Shown here piece by piece: positions 5,386 through 32,585 of a stretch of 64,000 bases of DNA. The position numbers and the translations under genes were made by a program. Every line of letters begins with the position of its first letter. Position 1 is the first letter of the stretch. Source of the stretch: a virus (taxonomy: Duplodnaviria > Caudoviricetes); IMG/VR virus record IMGVR_UViG_2974592265_000001, positions 1-64,000 of that record; one strand, given 5' to 3'. The notes below the pieces were generated by a model, which ran no database searches, had not been told where the DNA came from, and saw only the letters and a list, made by a program, of their open reading frames with translations.

Positions 5386-6564
5386 ATGCAATGCAAACTG
5401 AAATATGTTGCCAACGTCGATGGTCACCAGGTCGCTAAGGAACTGGACGCCAACGTCGAGCTGTACGCACAAGCCGCCGCTGCAGGTCTGGACCTGCGCC
5501 AGCACCTGCGCAACCTGGCTTCCGACTGGGACCCGACCATGGGTGACCCGATCGACCAGATGATGACCAACGCCGGCATGATGGACGGTGCCAACCGCAT
5601 CGGCCCAGCGCTGACCATGGCGCAGATGGCAGGCATGACCCAGGCTGACGGCTTCCGTCGTCCGGACGGTTCCGACGGCTCCCTCGGCGCACGCCTGCTG
5701 TACCCGCAGCTGATCCTCGAGACCATGAACGCCAACACCTTGCGTGATGACGGTTCGGACATCCTGTCGATCTGGGAAAGCTTCATCGCCACCAGCCGTA
5801 ACCTGAACGGCCAGATGGCGCAGCAGCCGATCATCGACACTTCGGCACCGGAAGGCAGCCGCAGCGGTCGTATGGTGCAGATGGCACTGCCGGAAACCAT
5901 GGTTTCCATCACCACTGGCCAAAAATCGTTCAAGATCCCAACCAACTCGATTGGTCTGATGATCGCCAACGAAGCCATGGCTGCCACCACCATCGACATC
6001 GTTCGTATCGTGATGGAAGCCCAGTCGCGCGGTGACAAGATCCGTCGCGTCGGCGAGCAGCTGAAGTCCATGGTACTGGGTGATGCCGACCTCGACATGA
6101 CCGCGCTGCCGATCCTCAAGGCTGGCGACTTCGACGCCCTGATCACCACCAATGGCAACATCACCAAGAAGGCCTACATCAAGTGGCTGTTCAGCATGCG
6201 CAACACTGCGAACATCTCGCAGGTGTTGACCGACATCGACACTGCCCTGGCAGTTGACGATGGCCTGGCACCGAAGCACGTCGGCACCGACAACTCGAAG
6301 ATTGCCACCCCATGGGCCGGCATGAACCTGGGTCTGACCCAGCCGCGCATCACGCCGTTCGAACCGGACATGTTCGGTGCCGGTCTGCTGGTGGGCTTCG
6401 ACCCTCGCTACGCGATCCAGCGCATGGTGAACATCTCCGCTGCCTACGACGGCATCGAAGAGTTCGTGATGCGTAAGGCCACCGGTTTCCGTGTGGACTA
6501 TGGCGAGATGGCAACCCGTCTGTACGACGAGGCCTGGTCGGTTCTCAGCCTCGAAGCAGCCTAA
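5386..6564 (+). CDS. Major capsid protein
   Basis: 392 aa, strongly biased codons, position in head module, followed by strong terminator. Confidence 0.8.
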   Translation: MQCKLKYVANVDGHQVAKELDANVELYAQAAAAGLDLRQHLRNLASDWDPTMGDPIDQMMTNAGMMDGANRIGPALTMAQMAGMTQADGFRRPDGSDGSLGARLLYPQLILETMNANTLRDDGSDILSIWESFIATSRNLNGQMAQQPIIDTSAPEGSRSGRMVQMALPETMVSITTGQKSFKIPTNSIGLMIANEAMAATTIDIVRIVMEAQSRGDKIRRVGEQLKSMVLGDADLDMTALPILKAGDFDALITTNGNITKKAYIKWLFSMRNTANISQVLTDIDTALAVDDGLAPKHVGTDNSKIATPWAGMNLGLTQPRITPFEPDMFGAGLLVGFDPRYAIQRMVNISAAYDGIEEFVMRKATGFRVDYGEMATRLYDEAWSVLSLEAA

Positions 6565-18694: not shown

Positions 18695-19272
18695 AGACTT
18701 TCTATCTCCATGGCTGGGCCGCTGAGCGGTACGGGGCCAGCTTTGAGCTGGACGTAGGTTCGCCCGCCGAAGCTATCAAGGCACTGGCCAGCCAGCTGCC
18801 TGGCTTCCAGAAGATGATCGAGGAGCATGACTGGCACGTCGTCCGGGGTCCGCTGGATCAGCAGCAATCCGACGACGTCGAGTCCGTGCGCCTGCGTCTG
18901 GGTTCGGAGACCGAGATCCACCTGCTGCCGGCCATGGCTGGTGCAGGCGGTGGCGGCGGGTTTATGGGTGGGCTGATGACTGTGGTCGGCGTGGCCCTGA
19001 TGATCGCTGCGACGTTCTTCTCCGGTGGTACAGCCGGCGCCCTGTTCGGCGCCGGTCTCGGCATGACCGTCGGCGGTGTGATCAGCCTGACCACCAAGAT
19101 GCCAGGCGCTGACCCGGTGACCGAGTCCGCGGACAACCGCGCCTCGTTCCTGTTTGCTGGACCCAAGAACTCATCCACCCAGGGGGTGGCTATTCCGCGT
19201 GGTTACGGGCGCCAGAGAGTTGGCAGCATTGTGATTAGTGTCGGCCTTTACGCTGAGGAGACTGCCACTTGA
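18691..19272 (+). CDS. Tail assembly protein I
   Basis: Ubiquitin-like N-terminus, Gly-rich hydrophobic middle, QGVAIPRGYG..VGS C-terminus. Confidence 0.88.
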   Translation: MKTFYLHGWAAERYGASFELDVGSPAEAIKALASQLPGFQKMIEEHDWHVVRGPLDQQQSDDVESVRLRLGSETEIHLLPAMAGAGGGGGFMGGLMTVVGVALMIAATFFSGGTAGALFGAGLGMTVGGVISLTTKMPGADPVTESADNRASFLFAGPKNSSTQGVAIPRGYGRQRVGSIVISVGLYAEETAT

Positions 19273-22200
19273 AACACTTCAAGGAAGACGCTGTAACCAT
19301 CAAGGGATCGGGTGGCGGTAGTTCGAAGAAAAAGCAACACACACCGGTAGAGCAGCCCAACACATTGCGGGCCAAAGTGCGTGGCCGCATCCTTGACCTG
19401 ATTGCCTACGGCCCGATCAAGGGGCTGGTCAACGGGCTGAAGTCCGTGTACCTCGACGACACCCCGGTGGAGAACGAGGACGGCAGCACGAACTTCCAGG
19501 GCATCACGCTGACCACGCGCAACGGCACCCCGGATCAGGACTACATCCCGGGCTTCCGTACCGTCGAGAACACCATCGAGGTCAACGCCGAGGTCAAGCT
19601 GGCGACCCCGGTGATCCGCTCGCTGACCAACAACGACGCCGACGCAGTGGCGGTCACCGTGCAGCTGGCAGGCTTGGTGCAGCAGCTAGACAACGGCGAC
19701 TCGGTTGGCTACAACGTGCCGATCCTGATCGAGGTGCGCAAGGACGGCGGCGGCTGGGAACAGGCCGTGTCCTACACCATCAACGGCAAGACCACCTCGC
19801 CGTACCCGAAGACGTTCCGCATCGACCTCAAGCACTACGGTCCCGGCGACTTTGACATCCGGGTTCGCCGCGTCACGCAGGAAAGTACCTCCAGCAAGCT
19901 GCAGGACAAGCTGACCTGGACCCTGATCACCGAGATCATCGACCGCCGCTTCAGCTACCCGAACATGGCGCTGGTGGGTATCGACGTCGACTCGGAGCTG
20001 TTCGGCTCGCAGATGCCGGCCCGCTCCTACGACATGTACCTGTCCGAGACCCAGGTCCCTAGCAACTGGGACCCAGAGACCCGGGTGTACACCGGGATCT
20101 GGGACGGTACGTTCAAAGAGGCCTACCACGACAACCCGGCGTGGGCTTACTACGACTTGGCCACGCACCCGATTATCGGCGCCGGGCTGGAGAGCGTCGA
20201 CAAGTGGGAGCTGTACCGGATCGCACAGTACTGTGATGCGCTGGTGCCGGACGGCTACGGCGACATGGAGCCGCGCTTCACCATCAACACCGTGTTCTCC
20301 GCGCAGGAAGACGCCATCACCGCGCTGAACACGCTGGCCAACGTCTTCCGTGGCATGACCTACTGGGGCAACAACACGGTCATCCCGGTGGCTGACATGC
20401 CGGAAGACCCGGTCCTCACCGTAGGGCCTGGCAGCGTGCTGGAAGGTGACTTCACCTACGCCGGCACCAGCATCCGCGAGCGTCACTCCGTTGCGGTGGT
20501 GATGTGGAACGATCCGGACGACGCCGGCAAACCAGTGCCAGAGGTCTACGAAGATCCGATCAGTATCGCTGAGTATGGTTGGAGAGAGACCCGCGTCACC
20601 GCGGTGGGCTGCAACAGCCGAGGCCAGGCACGCCGAATGGCGATGTGGATCTTGGACTCGGAACGTCACGAAACCCAGACGATGTCCTACACCGGCACCA
20701 GTGAACATGCGTTCCTGCGGCCGGGGAACATCATTGAGGTGGCTGACCCGTTCGTCCAAGGGGCTCGGATGTCTGGGCGCCTGCTGGAAGTGGCGGCCAA
20801 TCAGGTCCGCCTGGACAAGGCACCGACCGAGGCGATCGCCCAGATCGGAGGCACTTGGTATCTGTCGGTGATGCTGCCGGACCTGTCGCTGTCGCGGCAT
20901 GAAGTCAGCAGCGTGGACGGTGACGTGATCCACCTGGTGGATCCGCTGGCCACCCTACCACTGGTAGGCGCCATCTGGGGCATGTACAGCGCCGGCCTGC
21001 AGCTGCCGTACTACCGCGTGGTCAGCAACCGTGAAGACCAAGCGACCGGCATGTACCAGATCACCGCCACGGAATACGACCCGAACAAGTACAGCCGCGT
21101 GGAGCTGGGCCTGAACATCCCTGAGCGCCCAATCAGCCTGCTGCCAACCGGACTGATCCCGTCGCCGAGCAATCTGGAGTTCCAGGTCTACACCTACTTC
21201 GCTGGCAGCTCGCGCCACCAAGGCCTGCTGATCAGCTGGGAGCCGCCGCGCGACGTGCGGGTAGAGACCTTTGTGCTCGATGTGAAGGACCCTTCTCAGG
21301 CCGGCTTCCGCACCGTGTACGCAGGGCCTGGCGTTTCCTTCGATCTGACCGATGCCGAAGCGGGCAATTGGACGATCCGTGTGCGCGCCGTGGCGTCCAC
21401 CGGCAAGCTGTCCAACTGGACCTCGCGCAACGTGCAGATCAGCCAGCTGCTGCTGCCGTCGCCACCTGACTCGGTGACTGTCGAAGTCGCCACCTTCAGC
21501 ATCACGCTGACCCCACGCAGTGCCTACCCGGAAGCCATCTGGGAATTCTGGCGCAGCACCGTGGCACTGTCCGCCGAGAACATCGAGACCAACGCCCAAC
21601 AGCTGCCGACCGGTAATTACCTGGTCGATGCCAACCTCAAGCCGGACACGCAGTACTACTACTACGTGCGCGGCACCAACCAGTACGGCAAGTCGACGTG
21701 GTTCGGCGTGCAGGGCAAGACCCTGAACAACTTCGACGACATCCTCGACGCAGTACTGGAGGACGTCACCAACGGCGAACTGTTCGAGCTGATCAACTCG
21801 CAGATCGACACCAAGGCCACCCAGATCGCCATCGACGAGGCCAACGCCATCGTCAACCAAGCGATGATCGGGGTGAACGAACAGCTGACCCTGGTCAACA
21901 CCAACATCACCGCCATTGAAGGCGAGATCACTGATCTGCGCTCCGATGTGGACGGCCAGCTGGAGGTGGTCAACGACACACTGACCGACCTGCAGGGCCA
22001 GATCGACAACGCCATTGACGCGCTGGAATACCTCAACACCAACGCTTACGTGGCGGGTAACTTCGTCAAGGTCGGCAGCAGTCTGTACCAGGCCAAGATC
22101 GACGTTCCGGCTGACCCTACCAACGCCAAAGCGCCACCGAACGGCACCTACTGGCGTGATGCCGGGTCGGTGATCTCGTCGGCGGACGGACTAGCTGCAC

Positions 22201-25200
22201 GGGTCACCGTCAACGAGGCCAGCATCACCTCCATCAACGGCACGCTGACCGCACAGGCCACGACGATCACCGGCATTCAGTCCACGCTGAACGGCAAGGC
22301 TGACGCTTCGGCGCTGACCTCGCTGACCACGCGCGTGACTGCTGCTGAAGGGCTGATCACCAGCCAAGGCAGTGCGATCACCTCGCTGACCAGCACGGTG
22401 GCAGGCAAGGCGGACTCTTCCGCACTGAACGCACTGACCACCCGCGTCACCGCTGCCGAGGGCACCATCACCTCGCAAGGCAGCGCGCTCACCAGCCTGA
22501 CCAGCACGGTGAACAATAAGGCAGACGCTTCGGCGGTCAACGCGCTGACCACCCGCGTCACCGCGGCGGAAGGCACGATCGTATCCCAGAGCGGCGCCAT
22601 TACTGACCTGACCAGCGCAGTGGGCACCAAGGCAGATGCTTCGGCGCTGAGCGCGCTGACCACCAGGGTGAGCACGGCCGAAGGCACCCTTACCAGCCAG
22701 GGCAGCTCGATTACCTCGCTGAGCAACACGCTGAACACCCTGAGCGGTTCCGGCACCAACCTGCTGGTCGACACCTACAGCTGGTTGTCCAGTCTGGTCC
22801 TGCCAGACATGGAAACCAGTTTGGTTACCGTCGCAGGCGTGGCCATCGCCGGATCTGCCTCTGGCTTCGGCATCCGTGCCACGTCGTCCAGCAACAACAC
22901 GGCGCAGGAGTTCATGCTGGTCCCGTTCAACAGCGCGGCGGGCTGGAACCTCCCGCTGGAGGCTGGTAACTACCTGCTGTCCTTCTACGCCTCGTCGGCC
23001 ACCGCGGCGACCGTGCGCATGGCGCTGTACGACGGCGTCCTGCGCTACAGCCTAAGCCAGGCACTGACGACGACCCGCACCCGCTACACCCTGCTGATCA
23101 CCATTCCGGCGGCGACCAAGGCGGGCTTCACCGTCTACCCGAACATGCTCGGCTCGGCCAGCATCAACATCCTGTTCGACTCGTTCATGATCGAGAAGCA
23201 GGCAGGTAACGGCGTCGTGGGCTCCCCATTCGTGGCCGGCCCAAGCGCGCAGGCAGTGGCGGCTAACAGCGCCGCCCTGACCGGGCTGACCACTCGCGTC
23301 ACCGCTGCAGAAGGCACGATCACCAGCCAGGCGGGGTCCTTGGTCTCGCTGAACAGCACGATCAACGCCCTCGGCGGCACCGGCACCAACCTGGTGCCAG
23401 CGGAGTACTCCTCGTTCAGCTCTACCCTACCGCCCATCTACAAAGGTCCGGCAATCACGGTCGCTTCCGAGACTGACGCCACCTCGTACTCGGGTTCCGC
23501 GCTGAAGATCACTTCGGCAGCGACCGGCTCCAACTACCTCTACCTGGCCGACGCGATCGACGACTTCAACATGCGTCTGGTGCCAGGCGGCAAGTACATC
23601 GTCTCGTTCACTGCCCGGGCCGACGTGGCCAAGCTCATGCGGGTACGGGTACGCGCGCCGAACTCCGGGGGCTCGCCAATCGAGACCACGCTGAGCGACG
23701 TGTCCGTCACCACCACGGCAACCCGCTTCAGCTTCCTGGCCACCATGCCGGCCGCCGTTGTGGATCGTGGCGTGCTGGTTTTCTACCCGACTCAGCCAGT
23801 GGCTGCAGGTACGACGTACCTCACCGACATCATGGTGGAGAAGCAGGTCGGCAACTCGGTCAACCCTAGCGAGTTTGTGCCGGGCAACTCGGCACGCGCT
23901 GACATCGTCTCGGCGACCGCGATCAGCTCGATGGACACCCGGGTGACCTCGGCTGAAGGCACGATCACCAGCCACACCGGTTCGATCACTACGCTGACCA
24001 ACAGCATCGCAGGCAAGGCGGACGCCTCGGCGCTGAGTCTCCTGTCGGGCACCGTCACCACCCAAGGCAACACCATCGACAGCCACAGCGGACAGCTGAC
24101 CTCGCTGGGTAACATCGCATACGGCTTGAGCACCGAAAACCTGATCTCTGACCCGACGTTCTTCGCCGGGGCTCCGGTGATCGTGAACTCCGGCACCGTG
24201 GCCACCGTGGTGCAGCGTACCGACGGCGGTGTTCCGGCCGGCGGCCCAACCATGCGCCTGGGCAAGCTGGCTGTACCGACGATTGCCGGTAACAACTACA
24301 TCCGCTTCAACCCGCTGGAGAGTCGCAAGGACGCTACCACCCGCCTGTCTGTGATCGGCGGTGAGGTCTACTACTTCTCCATCGACGTGTACAAGGCAGG
24401 CTCCGGCGGCCGACAGATGGGCCTGTGGGCGCAGCCTTACGGCGCGGCCAGCGAGATCATCGACCACGACTGGATGGTAGCCAGCCCGGTCAGCATCTCC
24501 ACCACGGACAACGCCTGGGTCACCCTGAACGGCATGGTCACCATCCCGGCCGGGGCCAACTCGATCAACCTGAACCTGCGGGTCAGCAACGGCAACGCGG
24601 TCACCATCTACTTCGCCAACCCGAAGCTGTACAAGCGCAGCGCTGAGCAGTCGGCCACCTCCACCGCCATCACTGCGCTGGACTCCCGCGTAGGGGTCAC
24701 CGAAGGCACACTGACCAGCCAAGGCGCGGCGATCACCTCGCTGACCAACACGGTCAACGTCGTCGGCGGCACCGGCAGCAACCTGGTGCCGGTCGAGTAC
24801 TGCACGTTCAAGCAGGAAGGCCTGCCACCGATGGCCACGCGCGTGAGCACCAGCCTGTCGCTGCTGCTGAACACCAAGGCGTACAACGGCTGGTCGCTGA
24901 TGGTCACCGACACGCTGACCGCCGCCGGCTACTTCAGCCTGTTCGCCCACATCGACGACATGAACCTGCGGATGAAGCCGCTGCAGAAGTACATCGTGTC
25001 GTTCTGGGGGATGGCGGACGAAGTCCGCACCATCAACATCCGCCTTCGCTTCGTCAACGCCGCCGGCACCCACGTCGAAGGCGTGGTCGGCAGCGTCACC
25101 CTGAACCCGACTTGGCAGCGCGTCAGCACGGTCATCACCGCGCCGTCGACCGTGGTGGACGAGGCTGAGATCCTGTTCTACACCAACCCGGTCAGCGTGC

Positions 25201-26786
25201 CGTCGTCGTCGCACTTCGACGGATTCATGGTCGAGGAACAGGTCGGCCCGTCCACGCAGCCGTCGTCCTTCGTGCCAGGCTCGGCGACTACCGCCCTGAC
25301 AGCCACCGCCGCCGCGATCACCTCGCTGACCACCCGGGTGACCTCTGCTGAGGGCACGATCACCAGCCAGGCAGGCGCAGTCACCGCGATTCAGGCCTCC
25401 TTGGCGGCAGGCGGAGGCGCGGGTAGCAACCTGGTGCCGGACACCTACAGCTGGCCGACCAGCACCACGCTGCCAGCCGTGGTCACCAGTAGCACCGCGC
25501 CAACCCTGACGCTGATCGGGGTAGCCGTGGCCGCTGCTCAGTCCGGGTTTGGCTTCAAGACCACTTCCGGTTCCACCGCCACCACGCTGTGGTACTTGCT
25601 GTGCCCTAGCAATGGGGCATCCGGCTACAACATGGCGCTGGAGCCTGGCAACTACATGGTGTCGTACTACGCCTCGGCACCCGGCGCAGCGCGGATGCAG
25701 GTGCGTCTGTACGACGGCGCTGCAGGACCTATCAGCGGCGTGCAGATCCTGACCACCACACGCACCCGTTACACCGCGATCCTGAACGTACCGGCGACGA
25801 TGAAAGCCGGCCTGATGATTTACCCGAACGCCGCGGGGATCAACGGCACTCAGGTCACCGTCGACTCGGTCATGGTCGAGAAGATGAACAGTGGCGCCAC
25901 CACAGCTGCCCCGTCGCCGTTCGTAGCAGGCCCTGCAGCGGAGCGCGTCACTGCGCAGGCCTCAGCCATCTCCTCGATGGACACTCGGGTGACTTCGGCG
26001 GAAGGCACGATCACGTCGCAGTCCAGCTCGATCACCAGCCTGACCTCGCGCGTCGGCACCGCTGAGGCCAACATCACCACCACCGCGACCACGCTGGCCA
26101 GCACCAACGGCACGCTGACCTCGATGTGGGCGATGAAGATCAACACCAACGTCAACGGCAAGAACTTCATTGCCGGGATGGGGGCGGGCATCACCACGGT
26201 CGGCGGTATCACCCAGTCGGAGATCTTGTTCCAGGCTGACCGCTTCGCCCTGCTGAACACCAGCACCAACGGCATCCAGATGCCGTTCTTCATCGAGAGT
26301 GGGATCACTTACATCACCTCGGCGATGATCAAGAACGCCTCGATCATGGCGGCGCAGATCGCCAGTGCGCAGATCAACACGGGCCACATCGGCACCGCAC
26401 AGATCATCACAGCACACATCGCAGACGCGCAGATCACCAACGCCAAAATCGGCAGCCTGGCAGTGGACACGCTGAAGATCGCCGGCAACGCCGTAACGGT
26501 GCCAGTAGCCTCGTACACCACGACGCCGTCGGTGACGGTGGTGATCACGATCGACGCCAACTACCCGATCATGGTGATCGGCTCGCTGACCCAGGCGAAC
26601 TTCTCTACCATCTCGCTAAAGCGCAACGGTGTGCAGCTGTGGTCTGAGGTGCCGGTGGCCGGCACGGTCTGCTGCCGAGGGATCGTGGACAGCCCGGGCG
26701 CCGGTACACATACTTACGTCCTGGCCTCGACCCACAGCGGTAACGTGAACGGGTCCTCACTCATTCTACTGGCGTGCAAAAAATGA
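19269..26786 (+). CDS. Tail tip/central fibre host-specificity protein J (2505 aa) with FN3, coiled-coil repeats and five carbohydrate-binding-like beta domains
   Basis: GPIKGLVNG...DNPAW...EPRFT gpJ core; FN3 repeats; TRVTAAEG repeats; C-terminal FQADRFA motif; TTG start overlapping the upstream TGA. Confidence 0.92.
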   Translation: MKHFKEDAVTIKGSGGGSSKKKQHTPVEQPNTLRAKVRGRILDLIAYGPIKGLVNGLKSVYLDDTPVENEDGSTNFQGITLTTRNGTPDQDYIPGFRTVENTIEVNAEVKLATPVIRSLTNNDADAVAVTVQLAGLVQQLDNGDSVGYNVPILIEVRKDGGGWEQAVSYTINGKTTSPYPKTFRIDLKHYGPGDFDIRVRRVTQESTSSKLQDKLTWTLITEIIDRRFSYPNMALVGIDVDSELFGSQMPARSYDMYLSETQVPSNWDPETRVYTGIWDGTFKEAYHDNPAWAYYDLATHPIIGAGLESVDKWELYRIAQYCDALVPDGYGDMEPRFTINTVFSAQEDAITALNTLANVFRGMTYWGNNTVIPVADMPEDPVLTVGPGSVLEGDFTYAGTSIRERHSVAVVMWNDPDDAGKPVPEVYEDPISIAEYGWRETRVTAVGCNSRGQARRMAMWILDSERHETQTMSYTGTSEHAFLRPGNIIEVADPFVQGARMSGRLLEVAANQVRLDKAPTEAIAQIGGTWYLSVMLPDLSLSRHEVSSVDGDVIHLVDPLATLPLVGAIWGMYSAGLQLPYYRVVSNREDQATGMYQITATEYDPNKYSRVELGLNIPERPISLLPTGLIPSPSNLEFQVYTYFAGSSRHQGLLISWEPPRDVRVETFVLDVKDPSQAGFRTVYAGPGVSFDLTDAEAGNWTIRVRAVASTGKLSNWTSRNVQISQLLLPSPPDSVTVEVATFSITLTPRSAYPEAIWEFWRSTVALSAENIETNAQQLPTGNYLVDANLKPDTQYYYYVRGTNQYGKSTWFGVQGKTLNNFDDILDAVLEDVTNGELFELINSQIDTKATQIAIDEANAIVNQAMIGVNEQLTLVNTNITAIEGEITDLRSDVDGQLEVVNDTLTDLQGQIDNAIDALEYLNTNAYVAGNFVKVGSSLYQAKIDVPADPTNAKAPPNGTYWRDAGSVISSADGLAARVTVNEASITSINGTLTAQATTITGIQSTLNGKADASALTSLTTRVTAAEGLITSQGSAITSLTSTVAGKADSSALNALTTRVTAAEGTITSQGSALTSLTSTVNNKADASAVNALTTRVTAAEGTIVSQSGAITDLTSAVGTKADASALSALTTRVSTAEGTLTSQGSSITSLSNTLNTLSGSGTNLLVDTYSWLSSLVLPDMETSLVTVAGVAIAGSASGFGIRATSSSNNTAQEFMLVPFNSAAGWNLPLEAGNYLLSFYASSATAATVRMALYDGVLRYSLSQALTTTRTRYTLLITIPAATKAGFTVYPNMLGSASINILFDSFMIEKQAGNGVVGSPFVAGPSAQAVAANSAALTGLTTRVTAAEGTITSQAGSLVSLNSTINALGGTGTNLVPAEYSSFSSTLPPIYKGPAITVASETDATSYSGSALKITSAATGSNYLYLADAIDDFNMRLVPGGKYIVSFTARADVAKLMRVRVRAPNSGGSPIETTLSDVSVTTTATRFSFLATMPAAVVDRGVLVFYPTQPVAAGTTYLTDIMVEKQVGNSVNPSEFVPGNSARADIVSATAISSMDTRVTSAEGTITSHTGSITTLTNSIAGKADASALSLLSGTVTTQGNTIDSHSGQLTSLGNIAYGLSTENLISDPTFFAGAPVIVNSGTVATVVQRTDGGVPAGGPTMRLGKLAVPTIAGNNYIRFNPLESRKDATTRLSVIGGEVYYFSIDVYKAGSGGRQMGLWAQPYGAASEIIDHDWMVASPVSISTTDNAWVTLNGMVTIPAGANSINLNLRVSNGNAVTIYFANPKLYKRSAEQSATSTAITALDSRVGVTEGTLTSQGAAITSLTNTVNVVGGTGSNLVPVEYCTFKQEGLPPMATRVSTSLSLLLNTKAYNGWSLMVTDTLTAAGYFSLFAHIDDMNLRMKPLQKYIVSFWGMADEVRTINIRLRFVNAAGTHVEGVVGSVTLNPTWQRVSTVITAPSTVVDEAEILFYTNPVSVPSSSHFDGFMVEEQVGPSTQPSSFVPGSATTALTATAAAITSLTTRVTSAEGTITSQAGAVTAIQASLAAGGGAGSNLVPDTYSWPTSTTLPAVVTSSTAPTLTLIGVAVAAAQSGFGFKTTSGSTATTLWYLLCPSNGASGYNMALEPGNYMVSYYASAPGAARMQVRLYDGAAGPISGVQILTTTRTRYTAILNVPATMKAGLMIYPNAAGINGTQVTVDSVMVEKMNSGATTAAPSPFVAGPAAERVTAQASAISSMDTRVTSAEGTITSQSSSITSLTSRVGTAEANITTTATTLASTNGTLTSMWAMKINTNVNGKNFIAGMGAGITTVGGITQSEILFQADRFALLNTSTNGIQMPFFIESGITYITSAMIKNASIMAAQIASAQINTGHIGTAQIITAHIADAQITNAKIGSLAVDTLKIAGNAVTVPVASYTTTPSVTVVITIDANYPIMVIGSLTQANFSTISLKRNGVQLWSEVPVAGTVCCRGIVDSPGAGTHTYVLASTHSGNVNGSSLILLACKK
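22267..22710 (+). repeat. Four tandem ~111-bp (37-aa) coiled-coil repeats in gpJ
   Basis: ...KAD(A/S)SALxxLTTRVTAAEGxIxSQGSAIxxLT recurs with 111-nt period. Confidence 0.85.
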
Positions 26787-27507: not shown

Positions 27508-27903
27508 ATGACTACTGATCCAGCTTCGCATACAGGGTGGCTGACGGTCTCTGCAGTCTACGTGTGGGCCATTATCGAACAGCTACACCCTGGCTCAGCG
27601 ATGGGTGCCTCCTTCGGCTGCGTGTTCTTCGTCTTACTGCCTGATCCAGTTGTATCCTCTTGGTTACTAAAACTTATCCGAAAAATAGGACTCACAGTTG
27701 TGTCCTGGGGGTTCGGCTACGCCGTGGGGATTGCGTTCTCCAACGGCAGTTCAATGCTCGCTGCACTGATCGGTGCCGCGGTTGCTTCGGGGGTTCTTGG
27801 CGCGCTCAACTTGATGGTCAAGAACGATGGCGACCTGCCGCAATGGATGTCGTCTCTGATTAACGCAATTCTACGGTTGAAGCGAGGCGGCGATGAGCAA
27901 TGA
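27508..27903 (+). CDS. Putative holin (multi-TM)
   Basis: 131 aa with 3-4 hydrophobic segments; first gene of lysis cassette. Confidence 0.7.
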   Translation: MTTDPASHTGWLTVSAVYVWAIIEQLHPGSAMGASFGCVFFVLLPDPVVSSWLLKLIRKIGLTVVSWGFGYAVGIAFSNGSSMLAALIGAAVASGVLGALNLMVKNDGDLPQWMSSLINAILRLKRGGDEQ

Positions 27904-28210
27904 TCCTATGTATGGGGAAGTGCTTCTAAGCATTCGCATAGCGCTGCACATGGTCACGTTCTTTTCAGTGATCTGCTACAGCAGCGAACACCGCACACGT
28001 CCGTTCTCCAGCGTGCTGGCCTTGCTCTTGGCCGGCACATCACTGGCCTTGGCCATGCAGGGGTACACCGGCTTCGCAGCGATCGCAGCGAACTCGGAAA
28101 TCTGGCTGGTGCTGTTCGTTGGTGTAGTGACCATCCTTGTTGTCGCCAACGGCGGCAACGTCGCAAAAGTTCTCCACAACACTCGAAAGAGGCTCCCCTA
28201 TGGACGCTAA
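27893..28210 (+). CDS. Second putative holin/antiholin (3 TM)
   Basis: 105 aa, three hydrophobic helices, ANGGNVAK and basic C-terminus; precedes endolysin. Confidence 0.7.
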   Translation: MSNDPMYGEVLLSIRIALHMVTFFSVICYSSEHRTRPFSSVLALLLAGTSLALAMQGYTGFAAIAANSEIWLVLFVGVVTILVVANGGNVAKVLHNTRKRLPYGR

Positions 28211-28742
28211 GACTCTGGCCGCCGCCACGGGTATTCCGTTGGCGCGCGCACAGAAGTGGGAAGGACCCATCAGCGAAGCCATCACCTACGCCGACATCAC
28301 GTTGGCCAGGTCGATCGCCTCGTTCCTCGCCCAGACCGGGCATGAAAGCATGAGCTTCACCCGCACCAAGGAGATGGGTGACGACAAGTACCTCAGCCAG
28401 TACGACACCGGTAAGAAGGCCGAGCGCCTGGGCAACACGCCGGAGGCCGATGGCGACGGACAGCTGTACGCCGGCCGTGGGCTGATTCAGGTCACTGGCA
28501 AGAGTAACTACCGCCAGTGCAGCCTCGACCTGTTCGGGGATGAGCGCCTGGTGGATCATCCTCAGCTCCTCGAGGAGCCACGCTACGCAGCCCTGTCGGC
28601 GGCGTGGTACTGGAAGAAGAAGAAGCTGAACAGCCTGTCCAACGACATCATGGCGCAGACCCAGCGAATCAACGGCGGCCTGAACGGCATCGAAGATCGC
28701 AAGAAGCGCATGAGCCTGGCGCTCAAAGCGTTGGCTGCATGA
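28200..28742 (+). CDS. Endolysin, glycoside hydrolase family 19
   Basis: FLAQTGHES, GRGLIQVTGKSNY, SAAWYW, INGGLNG GH19 motifs. Confidence 0.93.
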   Translation: MDAKTLAAATGIPLARAQKWEGPISEAITYADITLARSIASFLAQTGHESMSFTRTKEMGDDKYLSQYDTGKKAERLGNTPEADGDGQLYAGRGLIQVTGKSNYRQCSLDLFGDERLVDHPQLLEEPRYAALSAAWYWKKKKLNSLSNDIMAQTQRINGGLNGIEDRKKRMSLALKALAA

Positions 28743-29278
28743 TGTTCGACCTACGCGCCGTGATCATCGCTGCCCTGTCCGCTCTGGTGATCGGGGCAGG
28801 TGTCGGCGCGTGGGTCGCTTGGGGCGTTCGCGCGACCCAGGCTGACCTCGACCTGCTTGGGCTGCGCAACACCTATGACACCGCCACCGCCGCGGCCAAG
28901 GATGAATCCCGCAGCGCGGAGCAGGCCTTGCAGCGGCAGATCGACGACCTGAGCGAGAAGGCCCGCGATGACCGCCACGAGATTGATACTGATGTCGCTG
29001 TTGCTGGCGACACTACTGACGGCCTGCTGCACGCAGCCGCCAACCTACGTTACAGCGCCTCCGCCTGTGATCCCGGCGTTGCCCGCCGAGGCCAGGCAGC
29101 CACCAAGGCCGCCCTTCTGTACTCCGAGCTGCTTGAAGAAACTCAGCGATTGGCAAAGGGATTGGCAGAAGAAGCTGAGCGAACCCGAGCTGCAGGCGCC
29201 ACTTGTGAAGTCGCCTACGACGGGGTGAAGCAAAAATATGGGGAGTTGTGGCATGAAAGGACCGGTAGTGACCGGTAG
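28739..29278 (+). CDS. Rz: i-spanin (Rz-like)
   Basis: N-terminal TM then coiled coil; C-terminal AGATCEVAYD; after endolysin. Confidence 0.85.
   Translation: MMFDLRAVIIAALSALVIGAGVGAWVAWGVRATQADLDLLGLRNTYDTATAAAKDESRSAEQALQRQIDDLSEKARDDRHEIDTDVAVAGDTTDGLLHAAANLRYSASACDPGVARRGQAATKAALLYSELLEETQRLAKGLAEEAERTRAAGATCEVAYDGVKQKYGELWHERTGSDR
28992..29228 (+). CDS. Rz1: o-spanin lipoprotein (Rz1-like) embedded in Rz
   Basis: MSLLLATLLTA-C lipobox, Pro-rich mature region, alternative frame fully inside Rz. Confidence 0.82.
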   Translation: MSLLLATLLTACCTQPPTYVTAPPPVIPALPAEARQPPRPPFCTPSCLKKLSDWQRDWQKKLSEPELQAPLVKSPTTG

Positions 29279-29286
29279 GTGAAGGG

Positions 29287-29302
29287 TGTTCCACGTGGAA
29301 CA
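29287..29302. promoter_or_regulatory. parS: Perfect parS (ParB-binding centromere) palindrome TGTTCCACGTGGAACA
   Basis: 16-bp perfect palindrome matching the chromosomal parS consensus in its Pseudomonas-type form; intergenic. Confidence 0.85.
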
Positions 29303-29317
29303 TTTGCAGAGTTAGAG

Positions 29318-29346
29318 GAGGGCAGCGATCGCTGCCCTCGTTGTTT
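29318..29346. terminator. Probable bidirectional terminator between convergent arms
   Basis: GAGGGCAGCGATCGCTGCCCTC 22-bp perfect palindrome followed by GTTGTTT. Confidence 0.7.
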
Positions 29347-29622
29347 CTAGGCGTGGGTCCAGCTGAATTTTCCGATCAAGGTGTCACCCTTGAGCGTCTT
29401 GTACTCCATCAGCCCTTCGCGATCAGACAGGTGTCGAGTGCGGCAGGCGATGACCACGGTGTCCTTGAGGAAGAACAGCGAGGTGCCCACTTCCGTGGTG
29501 CCGGTGGTGCCGGCTGGCACCTTGATGTACATCCAGGTGGATACCGGCGCCAGACTGCCTGGAGGGTTCCAGTGGGTGGCCTCTTCAACGTGGCCGCAGC
29601 AAGGGCAGCGTTCCGGGGTCAT
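29347..29622 (-). CDS. Hypothetical protein
   Basis: 91 aa, N-terminal CPCC, coupled to upstream ORF. Confidence 0.55.
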   Translation of the reverse strand: MTPERCPCCGHVEEATHWNPPGSLAPVSTWMYIKVPAGTTGTTEVGTSLFFLKDTVVIACRTRHLSDREGLMEYKTLKGDTLIGKFSWTHA

Positions 29623-30317: not shown

Positions 30318-32585
30318 TCACTCCCCCACGTTGACGATGTTTTCCGCCAGCGCCTGGTCGGTCTCGCGGTGGGTGATCAGCAGCACCTGCTTGGCGCTTC
30401 CAGCGATCATCGCCGCCAGACTTGCAGCGTTGTGTTCACGGCAGTCGGCAGTGGGCTCGTCGAAGATCAGCAGGCTGTCCTTGCCGTACAGGGCACGGGC
30501 CAGACCTACACGCAGCGAGACACCGATCATGGCTTTCTGCGCGCCGGAAGCCGACGCTGTAGGAGCGGAAATGCCTTCTTCCATGTAGTAGAAGTCACCC
30601 TCGTCGTTGCTGATCTGCGTGATCAGGTCCTTCGAAGCGGTGCGCACCAACTTGCTGCCCACACCCATGACGGTGTCCCAGACTTCCTTCAGGTACTGCT
30701 GACGACGGTCACGCAGGAACTGCACCAGGCGCTGGTACTTCTTGGCCAGGGCAACGTGTTCCACGGCAGCGGTGGCGTTCTTCTGCAGCTGCTCCAGCTT
30801 CTCGTTGGCCGCGTCCAGCAGCGAGGTGGCGTGCTTGACTTCCTGCTTGGCCAGGGTAACCGCCGATTCCAACACCTGCTTGCGTTCCTTCCACTCGCTG
30901 TGGGCGGCCTGGTAGGCGGTCTCAGCGGCTTCAGCAGCTTTGACGTCCGCTTCTGTCGGCGGCTCCGGCAACGCCTCCAGCTCGTCGTTCAGGGCCTGCA
31001 GAGTGGCCTTGGTCTCGTCCACCGTCACGCCGGCAGCTGCCAGCGCAGCGTGCTCGCGGTCGTAGGTGGAGTTGGCTTCGGTGATGCCCTTCAGCTTGGC
31101 CTGCATCTCGGCGTAGCTGGTGCGGGACTCACTCAGCTGTCCTGCCACACCGCTGAGCTCGTCTTCAATGATGCCCAGGGCGCGGGCAGGCTTGACGGCT
31201 TCTTTGGCTGCCTTGTCAGCGTTGATCGCATTGTCCAGCTTGACGATGGACGCCTCGTAGCGTGCCAGGGTGTCGGCGCGACCTTTACGGTCTTCCTTCA
31301 TCGCGGCGATGTCGGTCTGCAGCTGCGCCACCGAAGCCTTACGGCCCTCCCAGTAGGTACGGGCTTCCTCCGCTTCAGCTTTCAGCTTCTCAGGGTCGTG
31401 GTCTTCCTTTGCCCGTAGGCAAGTCGGGCACACGGCACCGTCGGACAGCATCAGCAGGTTGTCGTAGCTGCCCTTGGCCTTGCCAACTTCTTCCAGGCGT
31501 GCGGCGAGGTCGTCCTGCGAGGTCTGGATCGTTCGGTCCAGCAGGGCGATCTCAATTTCAGAGTCATCAGGCTCGAAGTCCTTCCAGTTGGCGTTGTGCT
31601 CGACTTGGCAGGTGTCCAGTGCCAGATCAGCCTCATCGGCGGCCAGCTGCAGACGTTTGGCCACGGCCAGCTCGTCGTTCAGAGCCTTCTCGGTGGCGGC
31701 CAGGGTGGTGCCGGAGGTCTTCATGCCTTCCATGTCGGCGAGGATCGCGGCGCCGTCCTGTTTGACCAGACCCATTGTGCGAGCCGCTGCCTCGTCGGCA
31801 CGGCTGTTGGCGTGTTTGACGTTGTTCTCGGCCACGGTGATGCGGTTGGACAGGCTGACCACGACGGCGATCTTCTCGCGCAGGGCGAAGGCTGCAGCAG
31901 GTTTCTCCAGATCGAACTCACCCTGGGACTCGCTGTTGGAAACCGCCGTGGCCAAACCAGACCCTGCCTGCAGGCTGGCGTCGGCGGCTGCCTTGGCCAT
32001 TTCACGGGCTTCTTCCATGGCTTCGTCCGAGACGAGGAGGGCGTCCGCCTTGCCGGTGCTGATGGTGGACTGACGCTGTGCTTCGGCCTGGACCTTGTCG
32101 ATCAGATCGACGCCGGCGAACTCTTCAACCTTGCGGTTCAGCGCGGCGGCGCCGAACTCGAGGATGGCGGCCGAGCTGTGCTGCTTGGACTGCACGAACA
32201 GGTCCCAGTCCTTGGCCGACAGGCCCAGCAGGGATTCCATCTCGGCGGTGACCGGGGTGCTGCCATTGGCCACCAGGTCGACGCTGCCGTCAGCGTTGGT
32301 GCGGGTCAGCTTGGCGGTCTTGTCGGTGCGCACGCAGCTGTAGATCTCGTCAGCGTGCAGCTGGAAGGTCAGGGTCACCTTCCAGGTCTTCTGGCCCCAC
32401 GTCGGGATGTTTTCCTTCTTGCCCGGTACGACGGTGGGGCCGAACAGGGCCACCTGAATGGCCTGCAGCAGGGTGGACTTGCCTTTGGCGTTGTCCCCGG
32501 CCACGACGTTCAGGCCCTGGGTGAATTCCGCGGTGAAGCTGCCGAGCTTTTTGAAGTTCTCGGTGACGCAAGTTAACAGACGCAT
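30318..32585 (-). CDS. sbcC: SbcC/Rad50-like recombination ATPase
   Basis: Walker A GDNAKGKST, coiled coil with CPTC zinc hook, ASGAQK signature, LLIFDEP Walker B, LITH. Confidence 0.92.
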   Translation of the reverse strand: MRLLTCVTENFKKLGSFTAEFTQGLNVVAGDNAKGKSTLLQAIQVALFGPTVVPGKKENIPTWGQKTWKVTLTFQLHADEIYSCVRTDKTAKLTRTNADGSVDLVANGSTPVTAEMESLLGLSAKDWDLFVQSKQHSSAAILEFGAAALNRKVEEFAGVDLIDKVQAEAQRQSTISTGKADALLVSDEAMEEAREMAKAAADASLQAGSGLATAVSNSESQGEFDLEKPAAAFALREKIAVVVSLSNRITVAENNVKHANSRADEAAARTMGLVKQDGAAILADMEGMKTSGTTLAATEKALNDELAVAKRLQLAADEADLALDTCQVEHNANWKDFEPDDSEIEIALLDRTIQTSQDDLAARLEEVGKAKGSYDNLLMLSDGAVCPTCLRAKEDHDPEKLKAEAEEARTYWEGRKASVAQLQTDIAAMKEDRKGRADTLARYEASIVKLDNAINADKAAKEAVKPARALGIIEDELSGVAGQLSESRTSYAEMQAKLKGITEANSTYDREHAALAAAGVTVDETKATLQALNDELEALPEPPTEADVKAAEAAETAYQAAHSEWKERKQVLESAVTLAKQEVKHATSLLDAANEKLEQLQKNATAAVEHVALAKKYQRLVQFLRDRRQQYLKEVWDTVMGVGSKLVRTASKDLITQISNDEGDFYYMEEGISAPTASASGAQKAMIGVSLRVGLARALYGKDSLLIFDEPTADCREHNAASLAAMIAGSAKQVLLITHRETDQALAENIVNVGE

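Follow-up and report, generated by a model that had tools for sequence, protein, structure and literature searches.

A virulent phage that borrows the ParB protein of its host through a host-type parS site is already known from the Bacillus phages phi29 and Nf. The genome of phi29 carries five parS sites, and the host protein Spo0J helps to segregate the phage genome into the prespore (PMC2731898), which confirms the precedent of host Spo0J/parS use that had been named in an earlier note on the DNA described here. A host centromere on a phage has so far been demonstrated only for phi29 and spore entrapment.

In Pseudomonas aeruginosa, parS has the sequence TGTTCCACGTGGAACM and is present at four sites. 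The region around them that ParB covers by spreading exceeds 20 kb, and in vivo the protein does not bind sites with two mismatches (PMC5098823). In the same species, hundreds of single GTTCCAC half-sites are ParB targets in vivo as well (PMC10419367), and ParB is reported to repress the promoters adjoining parS3 and parS4 (PMC5521831). The chromosomal parS sites of Pseudomonas share TGTTCCACGTGGAACA, which corresponds to a transition at positions 5/12 of the general consensus (Pillet et al., PMC5450999). For the protein ParBc1 of B. cenocepacia, symmetric changes abolish binding except at positions 1/16 and 5/12, and 49% of the binding is left on a half-parS (PMC5450999).

The window analysed here is the whole stretch of 64,000 nucleotides, namely bases 1–64000 of an 88,403-bp IMG/VR virus record which is complete (100%) according to CheckV. 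It contains TGTTCCACGTGGAACA as a perfect 16-bp palindrome at positions 29287–29302, in an intergenic location where the two gene arms of the phage converge. The features of this region, with positions given in the window, are as follows.

27893–28210, plus strand: probable holin; the match to Phage_holin_3_7 is weak and under the Pfam cut-off, and the same weak match is found in relatives
28200–28742, plus strand: endolysin, Glyco_hydro_19 (GH19), by profile match
28742–29278, plus strand: spanin (DUF2514), last gene of the rightward arm, by profile match and homologues
29279–29314, no strand: parS-holding segment of about 35 bp from the spanin stop to the terminator, present in the alignment only in element-bearing lineages
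29287–29302, no strand: Pseudomonas-type chromosomal parS, single copy; the 16-mer is that of P. aeruginosa parS2/parS3 (PMC5098823)
29318–29349, plus strand: intrinsic terminator closing the rightward late/lysis operon, with a 9-bp G+C-rich stem, a GATC loop and a T-rich tail
29347–29622, minus strand: conserved hypothetical protein of 91 aa, last gene of the leftward arm, 40% identical to PMBT3 gp034
30318–32585, minus strand: SbcC/Rad50-like ATPase of 755 aa in the leftward replication/recombination arm, by profile match and homologues

The palindrome starts 8 bp 3' of the spanin stop, and the stem of the terminator itself (29318–29339) begins 15 bp further on. The spanin ends at 29278 and the minus-strand gene at 29347, leaving a gap of 68 bp between the convergent arms. 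The coordinates and the perfect symmetry of the palindrome are thus borne out on the sequence, and the 68-bp gap between lysis and replication genes and the 15-bp distance to the terminator, both claimed in the earlier note, match the ORF ends and the position of the stem. The stop of the 91-aa protein gene sits just right of the terminator, and the minus strand to the right of the junction carries three small ORFs and the 755-aa ATPase. On the other side, a plus-strand ORF of 2505 aa (19269–26786) lies just 5' of the lysis cassette; it probably encodes a tail or host-recognition protein, and its counterpart in a relative has GpJ-type tail-tip domains.

All 16 positions of the palindrome fit the chromosomal-type parS pattern TGTTNCACGTGNAACA, to which the complete 88,403-bp record holds a single match when up to one mismatch is allowed. 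Positions 5/12 are CC/GG as in Pseudomonas, the host genus indicated by the relatives of the phage. For comparison, Pseudomonas genomes were gathered via a 16S primer pattern. Five Pseudomonas genomes have three to five parS sites each, the perfect one included in every case, and their chromosomal variants differ at positions 1/16 or 3/14 only and never at the centre. The assignment of the palindrome to the Pseudomonas type of parS agrees with the published descriptions (PMC5098823, PMC5450999) and with the perfect site in all five genomes. By its sequence, the perfect site on the phage genuinely matches a host-type centromere.

The nearest cultured relative of the phage is Pseudomonas phage PMBT3, which has P. 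grimontii as its host and an SbcC-like protein 58% identical to that of the record, and the second one is Pseudomonas phage UAntarctica, with 48% identity in the same protein. Judged by its relatives and its G+C content, the probable host genus of the record is Pseudomonas. PMBT3 is a virulent siphovirus without lysogeny genes, and in this phage group a function has yet to be assigned to about 70% of the genes (PMC8421299). As an IMG/VR query the SbcC-like protein gave no usable relatives, and the distant Vibrio phage relatives SHOU24 and 51E28.4 are without a parS of any N5/N12 type.

Profile searches in all six frames of the complete record detected, at E≤1, no ParB_N (PF02195), HTH_ParB (PF17762) or TIGR00180 (parB), and likewise no AAA_31 of the ParA type (PF13614) and no tyrosine integrase (PF00589). 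The absence of parA, parB and integrase that had been reported for the window hence extends to the complete 88.4-kb record, and the part beyond the window, where a phage parB was still to be sought, also yields none at this threshold. Since they have no partition protein of their own, such phages would most likely dock host ParB, as phi29 does. We therefore propose, with moderate confidence, that the chromosomal ParB of the host docks on the 16-mer, which would act in cis.

The earlier note had put the chance expectation of a 16-base match at 1.5e-5; the arithmetic is right for one window, but it ignores the approximately 250,000 windows scanned. Perfect palindromes of 16 nt are in excess in the record, with eight present against about 2.3 expected. 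Six further ones are located at window positions 5892, 8822, 14498 and 47104 and, beyond the window, at 72099 and 87885, and three of these have GATC or GCGC-type centres. The number of GTTCCAC half-sites in the record (19 against 15 expected) is not unusual. The parS match on the phage is not due to chance, because the 16-mer, or a version of it with one central change, is found at the same junction in five other diverged lineages.

Junctions from the spanin stop to the terminator were gathered from about 20 related lineages, using the terminator core as a marker, spanin homologues together with their contigs, and a profile search of IMG/VR. The core, GGGCAGCGATCGCTGCCC (18 nt, window 29320–29337), is common to the relatives. 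It is conserved better than the neighbouring proteins (L124/L129 and L125–L128 compared), is specific to this phage group within IMG/VR and occurs twice, in separate places, in one 87.4-kb relative. A metagenome scan for the core led mostly to contigs of this same set, and its remaining matches were unrelated. The parS element is present at the same junction in six of the approximately 20 lineages, window included, with one or two copies in each and eight copies in total; for the relatives that carry it, whose contigs come from metagenomes or read archives, the analysis covers a few kb each. The six carriers, with the identity of their spanin to that of the window, are listed here.

Window: spanin as reference; one perfect copy
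L247/L248: spanin 82%; one TGTTCCATGTGGAACA (TG form)
L249–251: spanin 70%; one copy in the TG form, TGTTCCATGTGGAACA
L372: spanin 65%; one TG form; the terminator loop differs
L128: spanin 66%; two inverted copies, with CA and TG centres
L373: spanin 68%; two perfect copies 9 bp apart; the terminator stem differs

In the alignment the element is a block of 32 columns after the stop codon, which is missing in L252, L374, L623 and L127. In these four and in L624 and L126 the terminator lies within a few bases of the stop, while PMBT3, L376, L621/L124, L622, L634 and L636 have no element and one to five extra genes at the junction. Altogether about 14 related lineages are without the element at this place, both cultured relatives among them, and the full genomes of PMBT3, UAntarctica, G405, G406 and G407 contain zero parS-like sites at up to two mismatches. 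The element is dispensable, because about 14 related lineages live without it. Conservation of the site and its position in related phages, proposed earlier as a check, is thereby upheld in part: the same junction has kept the element in five other lineages, but the absence from about 14 lineages and a central mismatch in four of the six carriers count on the other side and go part of the way towards what the earlier note named as refuting its reading.

The point just past the spanin stop (29279) is a mosaic junction, with extra plus-strand genes in PMBT3-like lineages. Between spanin and terminator, one to five inserted genes of unknown function are found in PMBT3 (L002:7274–10560), L376, L621, L622, L634 and L636.

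A tree of endolysin and spanin places five element-bearing lineages on one side of a well-supported split (97/92). The sixth, L372, falls among element-less lineages, and therefore at least two losses, or a transfer, must have occurred. The state of the centre has switched between CG and TG at least twice (window versus L247 and L373 versus L249). Gene tables of the relatives reveal no gene near the junction, ParB-type or other, that co-occurs with the element.

The arms TGTTCCA and TGGAACA are identical in all eight copies of the element, and variation is confined to the central two positions, where only CG, TG and CA are observed. The central CG, conserved in this parS family, is present in the window and in both copies of L373, and it is replaced by TG or CA in L247, L249, L372 and L128 (four of the six carriers). 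The spanins flanking the element differ by 18–35%; as the arms stay invariant while these proteins diverge, the arms appear to be under purifying selection. The terminator stem next to the element, in the same alignment, has compensatory double changes at two of its pairs. The arms of the element have no compensatory or wobble change, so that recognition of the sequence fits better than a purely structural role. Taken over six lineages, this pattern is suggestive of sequence-specific recognition of the arms, and selection on the site in a sub-group of the relatives is supported by the alignment.

The core of the perfect site is the hexamer CACGTG, which occurs only twice in the 88-kb record against about 28 expected, one of the two being the parS core. 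CACGTG has zero occurrences in PMBT3, UAntarctica and three IMG/VR relatives (G405–G407), and a reversed control hexamer occurs 13–22 times in four of those five genomes. Other rare 6-bp palindromes (observed/expected) are ATCGAT (0/27), GGGCCC (0/26), GGTACC (1/45), AAGCTT (1/30) and CGTACG (1/30), and there is no avoidance of ACGT in the record. PMBT3 is also devoid of GTGCAC. The avoidance of palindromes points to a long history of contact with many type II restriction systems. A C-to-T transition on either strand is the smallest change by which CACGTG is lost while 15 of 16 bases and one intact half-site are kept, and we infer that the central change in the relatives may reflect restriction avoidance. 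The TG form should keep at least ParB binding at the level of a half-site. Perfect sites have survived in the window and in L373 despite the purge of CACGTG, which would mean that an intact 16-mer brings enough benefit to outweigh a cost.

IMG/VR has at least 120 matches to the 16-mer with its CG centre and at least 120 to the TG form, against three to a reversed control palindrome; forms with an A/G centre (loci L377–L494) also have at least 120, and these raw counts are not comparable, because the A/G-centre forms encode V-P-[GS]-G-T in coding DNA. The peptide, V-P-[SG]-G-T from GTTCCA[AG]GTGGAACA, is found in several conserved viral genes. An argument from enrichment in IMG/VR was therefore dropped in its raw-count form, the A/G-centre forms being inflated by the coding peptide, and what carries weight is the non-coding surroundings in which the C and T forms are found, which we regard as suggestive. 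In a family of viral contigs of 4.5–7.6 kb, the 16-mer is flanked by a terminator-like hairpin on one side and a ribosome-binding site on the other. It has the CG form in L034, L037, L092, L112, L118, L119 and others and the TG form in L259, L260, L263, L267, L276, L278, L288, L300 and others, so that its centre toggles between the two states just as it does among the Pseudomonas phages. In the IMG/VR contig L333, which has four TG-form sites, no ParB was found among the ORFs scanned.

Among Pseudomonas genomes, the TG form is present in 18 of 401 against 1 for the control (17 of 400 published genomes, the 18th being the unpublished G378), a count that is inflated by descent because at least five of them share one orthologous trpB/trpA junction. 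In at least five Pseudomonas species (L615–L618, G092), the TGTTCCATGTGGAACA at this junction overlaps with the stop codon of trpB and comes before the start of trpA; where the chromosome is complete, the distance between its first base and this TGTTCCATGTGGAACA does not exceed some tens of kb. No perfect version of the 16-mer was found at the trpB/trpA junction in 91 genomes. The chromosomal TGTTCCATGTGGAACA may bind ParB weakly, or it may serve as an RNA element between trpB and trpA.

The element lies 8 bp past the last stop codon, with the terminator 15 bp further on. This location raises the possibility that the palindrome works at the level of RNA (or in the form of a DNA cruciform), adding a hairpin to the 3' UTR of the late/lysis transcript that helps termination or protects the mRNA end, in which case the identity with parS would be coincidental. 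A hairpin fold is predicted for the element in every lineage, the two copies in L128 and L373 can pair as a stem of 16–20 bp, the CA and TG centres of L128 are exactly complementary, and all observed variation is inside the would-be loop. However, the hairpin is weak (−9.7 kcal/mol, with 7 of 200 shuffled sequences folding equally well), and positions 7 and 10 of the would-be loop are invariant. The predicted hairpin is followed by UUUG and has seven of its eight pairs invariant and none compensatory, against two compensatory pairs in the true terminator; across the eight copies there are zero compensatory or G-U changes in the arms, although the adjoining terminator does co-vary. Moreover, from a structural role one would expect neither that three copies match the host-specific parS at 16 of 16 positions nor that CACGTG is retained in genomes that purge it. 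We therefore consider such a role unlikely. For the position of the element, the hairpin is all the same a live rival to the conjecture of the earlier note that ParB loading would be least disturbed at this junction.

The invariant arms and the free centre would equally be expected if the element were an operator for another DNA-binding protein, either a phage regulator or a host transcription factor, that reads TGTTCCA-N2-TGGAACA with an unimportant centre. TG is the commonest form in the relatives, it is present in many unrelated IMG/VR contigs in non-coding contexts, and the large share of genes without assigned function in this group (about 70%, PMC8421299) would leave room for such a regulator. 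However, no candidate protein was found, and in the gene tables of the relatives none of the genes around the junction goes together with the element. The centre shows only CG transitions rather than free variation, and the exact match to the parS of the host genus in three copies would be a coincidence, which makes an operator of this kind quite improbable in our view. That the element is a functionless scrap of recombination, inherited at a mosaic junction, is very improbable: the junction is a recombination hot spot, with one to five genes inserted there in PMBT3-like lineages, and the element has been lost repeatedly on the tree, but 14 arm columns are unchanged in six lineages whose flanking proteins differ by 18–35%, the copy number shifts while the sequence stays, and CACGTG is kept despite its genome-wide purge.

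If the element is a docking site for host ParB, as we favour, ParB dimers of the host would recognise the palindrome after infection. On a perfect site ParB would load as CTP-dependent clamps, and the centre-mutated sites of the relatives would probably bind it more weakly through one intact half-site. In effect, the phage DNA would become an additional, small centromere. With phi29 as a guide, the ParA/ParB system of the host would most likely be used to position or partition unpackaged genomes, and the setting for this may be slow or arrested infections such as the carrier state or pseudolysogeny. Alternatively, bound ParB might serve as a roadblock, an insulator or a local silencer between the convergent arms, or the many replicating phage copies might titrate ParB from the host origin. 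SMC loading, which the earlier note brings up, would be a further conceivable consequence. Against docking speak the absence of the element from about 14 lineages, the single site, far fewer than the five of phi29, and the central mismatch in four of the six carriers, at a place where symmetric changes abolish binding of ParBc1 and where the chromosomal sites of the five Pseudomonas genomes show no variants.

A wider proposal, which we put forward only tentatively and think rather doubtful as a whole, is that a clade of virulent Pseudomonas siphoviruses rides on the ParABS system of the host by means of an orphan centromere, so that both daughter cells inherit unpackaged genomes in carrier-state or arrested infections, and that the site is caught in a tug-of-war with restriction avoidance. 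Under the purge of CACGTG, a lineage would retain the centromere intact, give up one base at its centre or part with the site altogether; the C-to-T change at the centre would remove CACGTG and spare 15 of the 16 bases.

Surveys from 2025 describe thousands of lytic phage genomes in isolate assemblies and offer no mechanism (PMC12768965; bioRxiv 2024.12.31.630880). For the question of how strictly lytic phages persist in dividing bacteria, a host centromere carried by the phage is a simple and testable mechanism and, if true, it would be a concrete cis-acting one for the persistence of 'lytic' phages in bacterial isolates. The phage group represents a natural experiment, having relatives with two sites, one perfect site, one degraded site or no site, and cultured relatives with non-pathogenic hosts exist (PMBT3, UAntarctica). 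The opposition between centromere perfection and the avoidance of restriction sites also gives a new angle on the often imperfect parS sites carried by phages.

Compared with known elements, the palindrome resembles the tandem hairpins at intrinsic terminators in being short, placed right before a strong terminator and transcribed into the 3' end of an operon; it differs from them in that its arms are invariant and not co-varying and its sequence is the host parS. The ParABS cassettes of the plasmid-prophages P1/N15 and the ParB/KorB-type sites of phages are likewise palindromic centromeres or operators on a phage, but those elements encode a cognate ParB (and ParA), and no such gene was detected here. 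The 16-mer is identical to parS2/parS3 among the P. aeruginosa sites parS1–4. Unlike the chromosomal parS sites of Pseudomonas, however, it is located on a virus, neither near a replication origin nor beside parAB, and the TG and CA centres of its phage relatives are not seen among the chromosomal sites of the five genomes examined.

The closest likeness is to the Bacillus phages phi29 and Nf, which are also of lytic type, have no ParB of their own and carry a host-type centromere. As in phi29, neither a ParB or ParA of its own nor lysogeny genes are found in the present phage. The several sites of phi29 have no counterpart, its five standing against one here and none to two in the relatives. 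Unlike those of phi29, the present site, a putative ParB target, is located where convergent operons end beside a terminator. The presumed host is Gram-negative and does not form spores, hence the biological purpose must differ from that in phi29. A literature search found no description of an orphan host-type parS in phages of Gram-negative bacteria. Relative to phi29 and Nf, the novelty lies in the group of hosts, in a lone site where two arms converge, in the graded series among the relatives from two sites through one and a degraded one to none, and in the apparent conflict with restriction avoidance.
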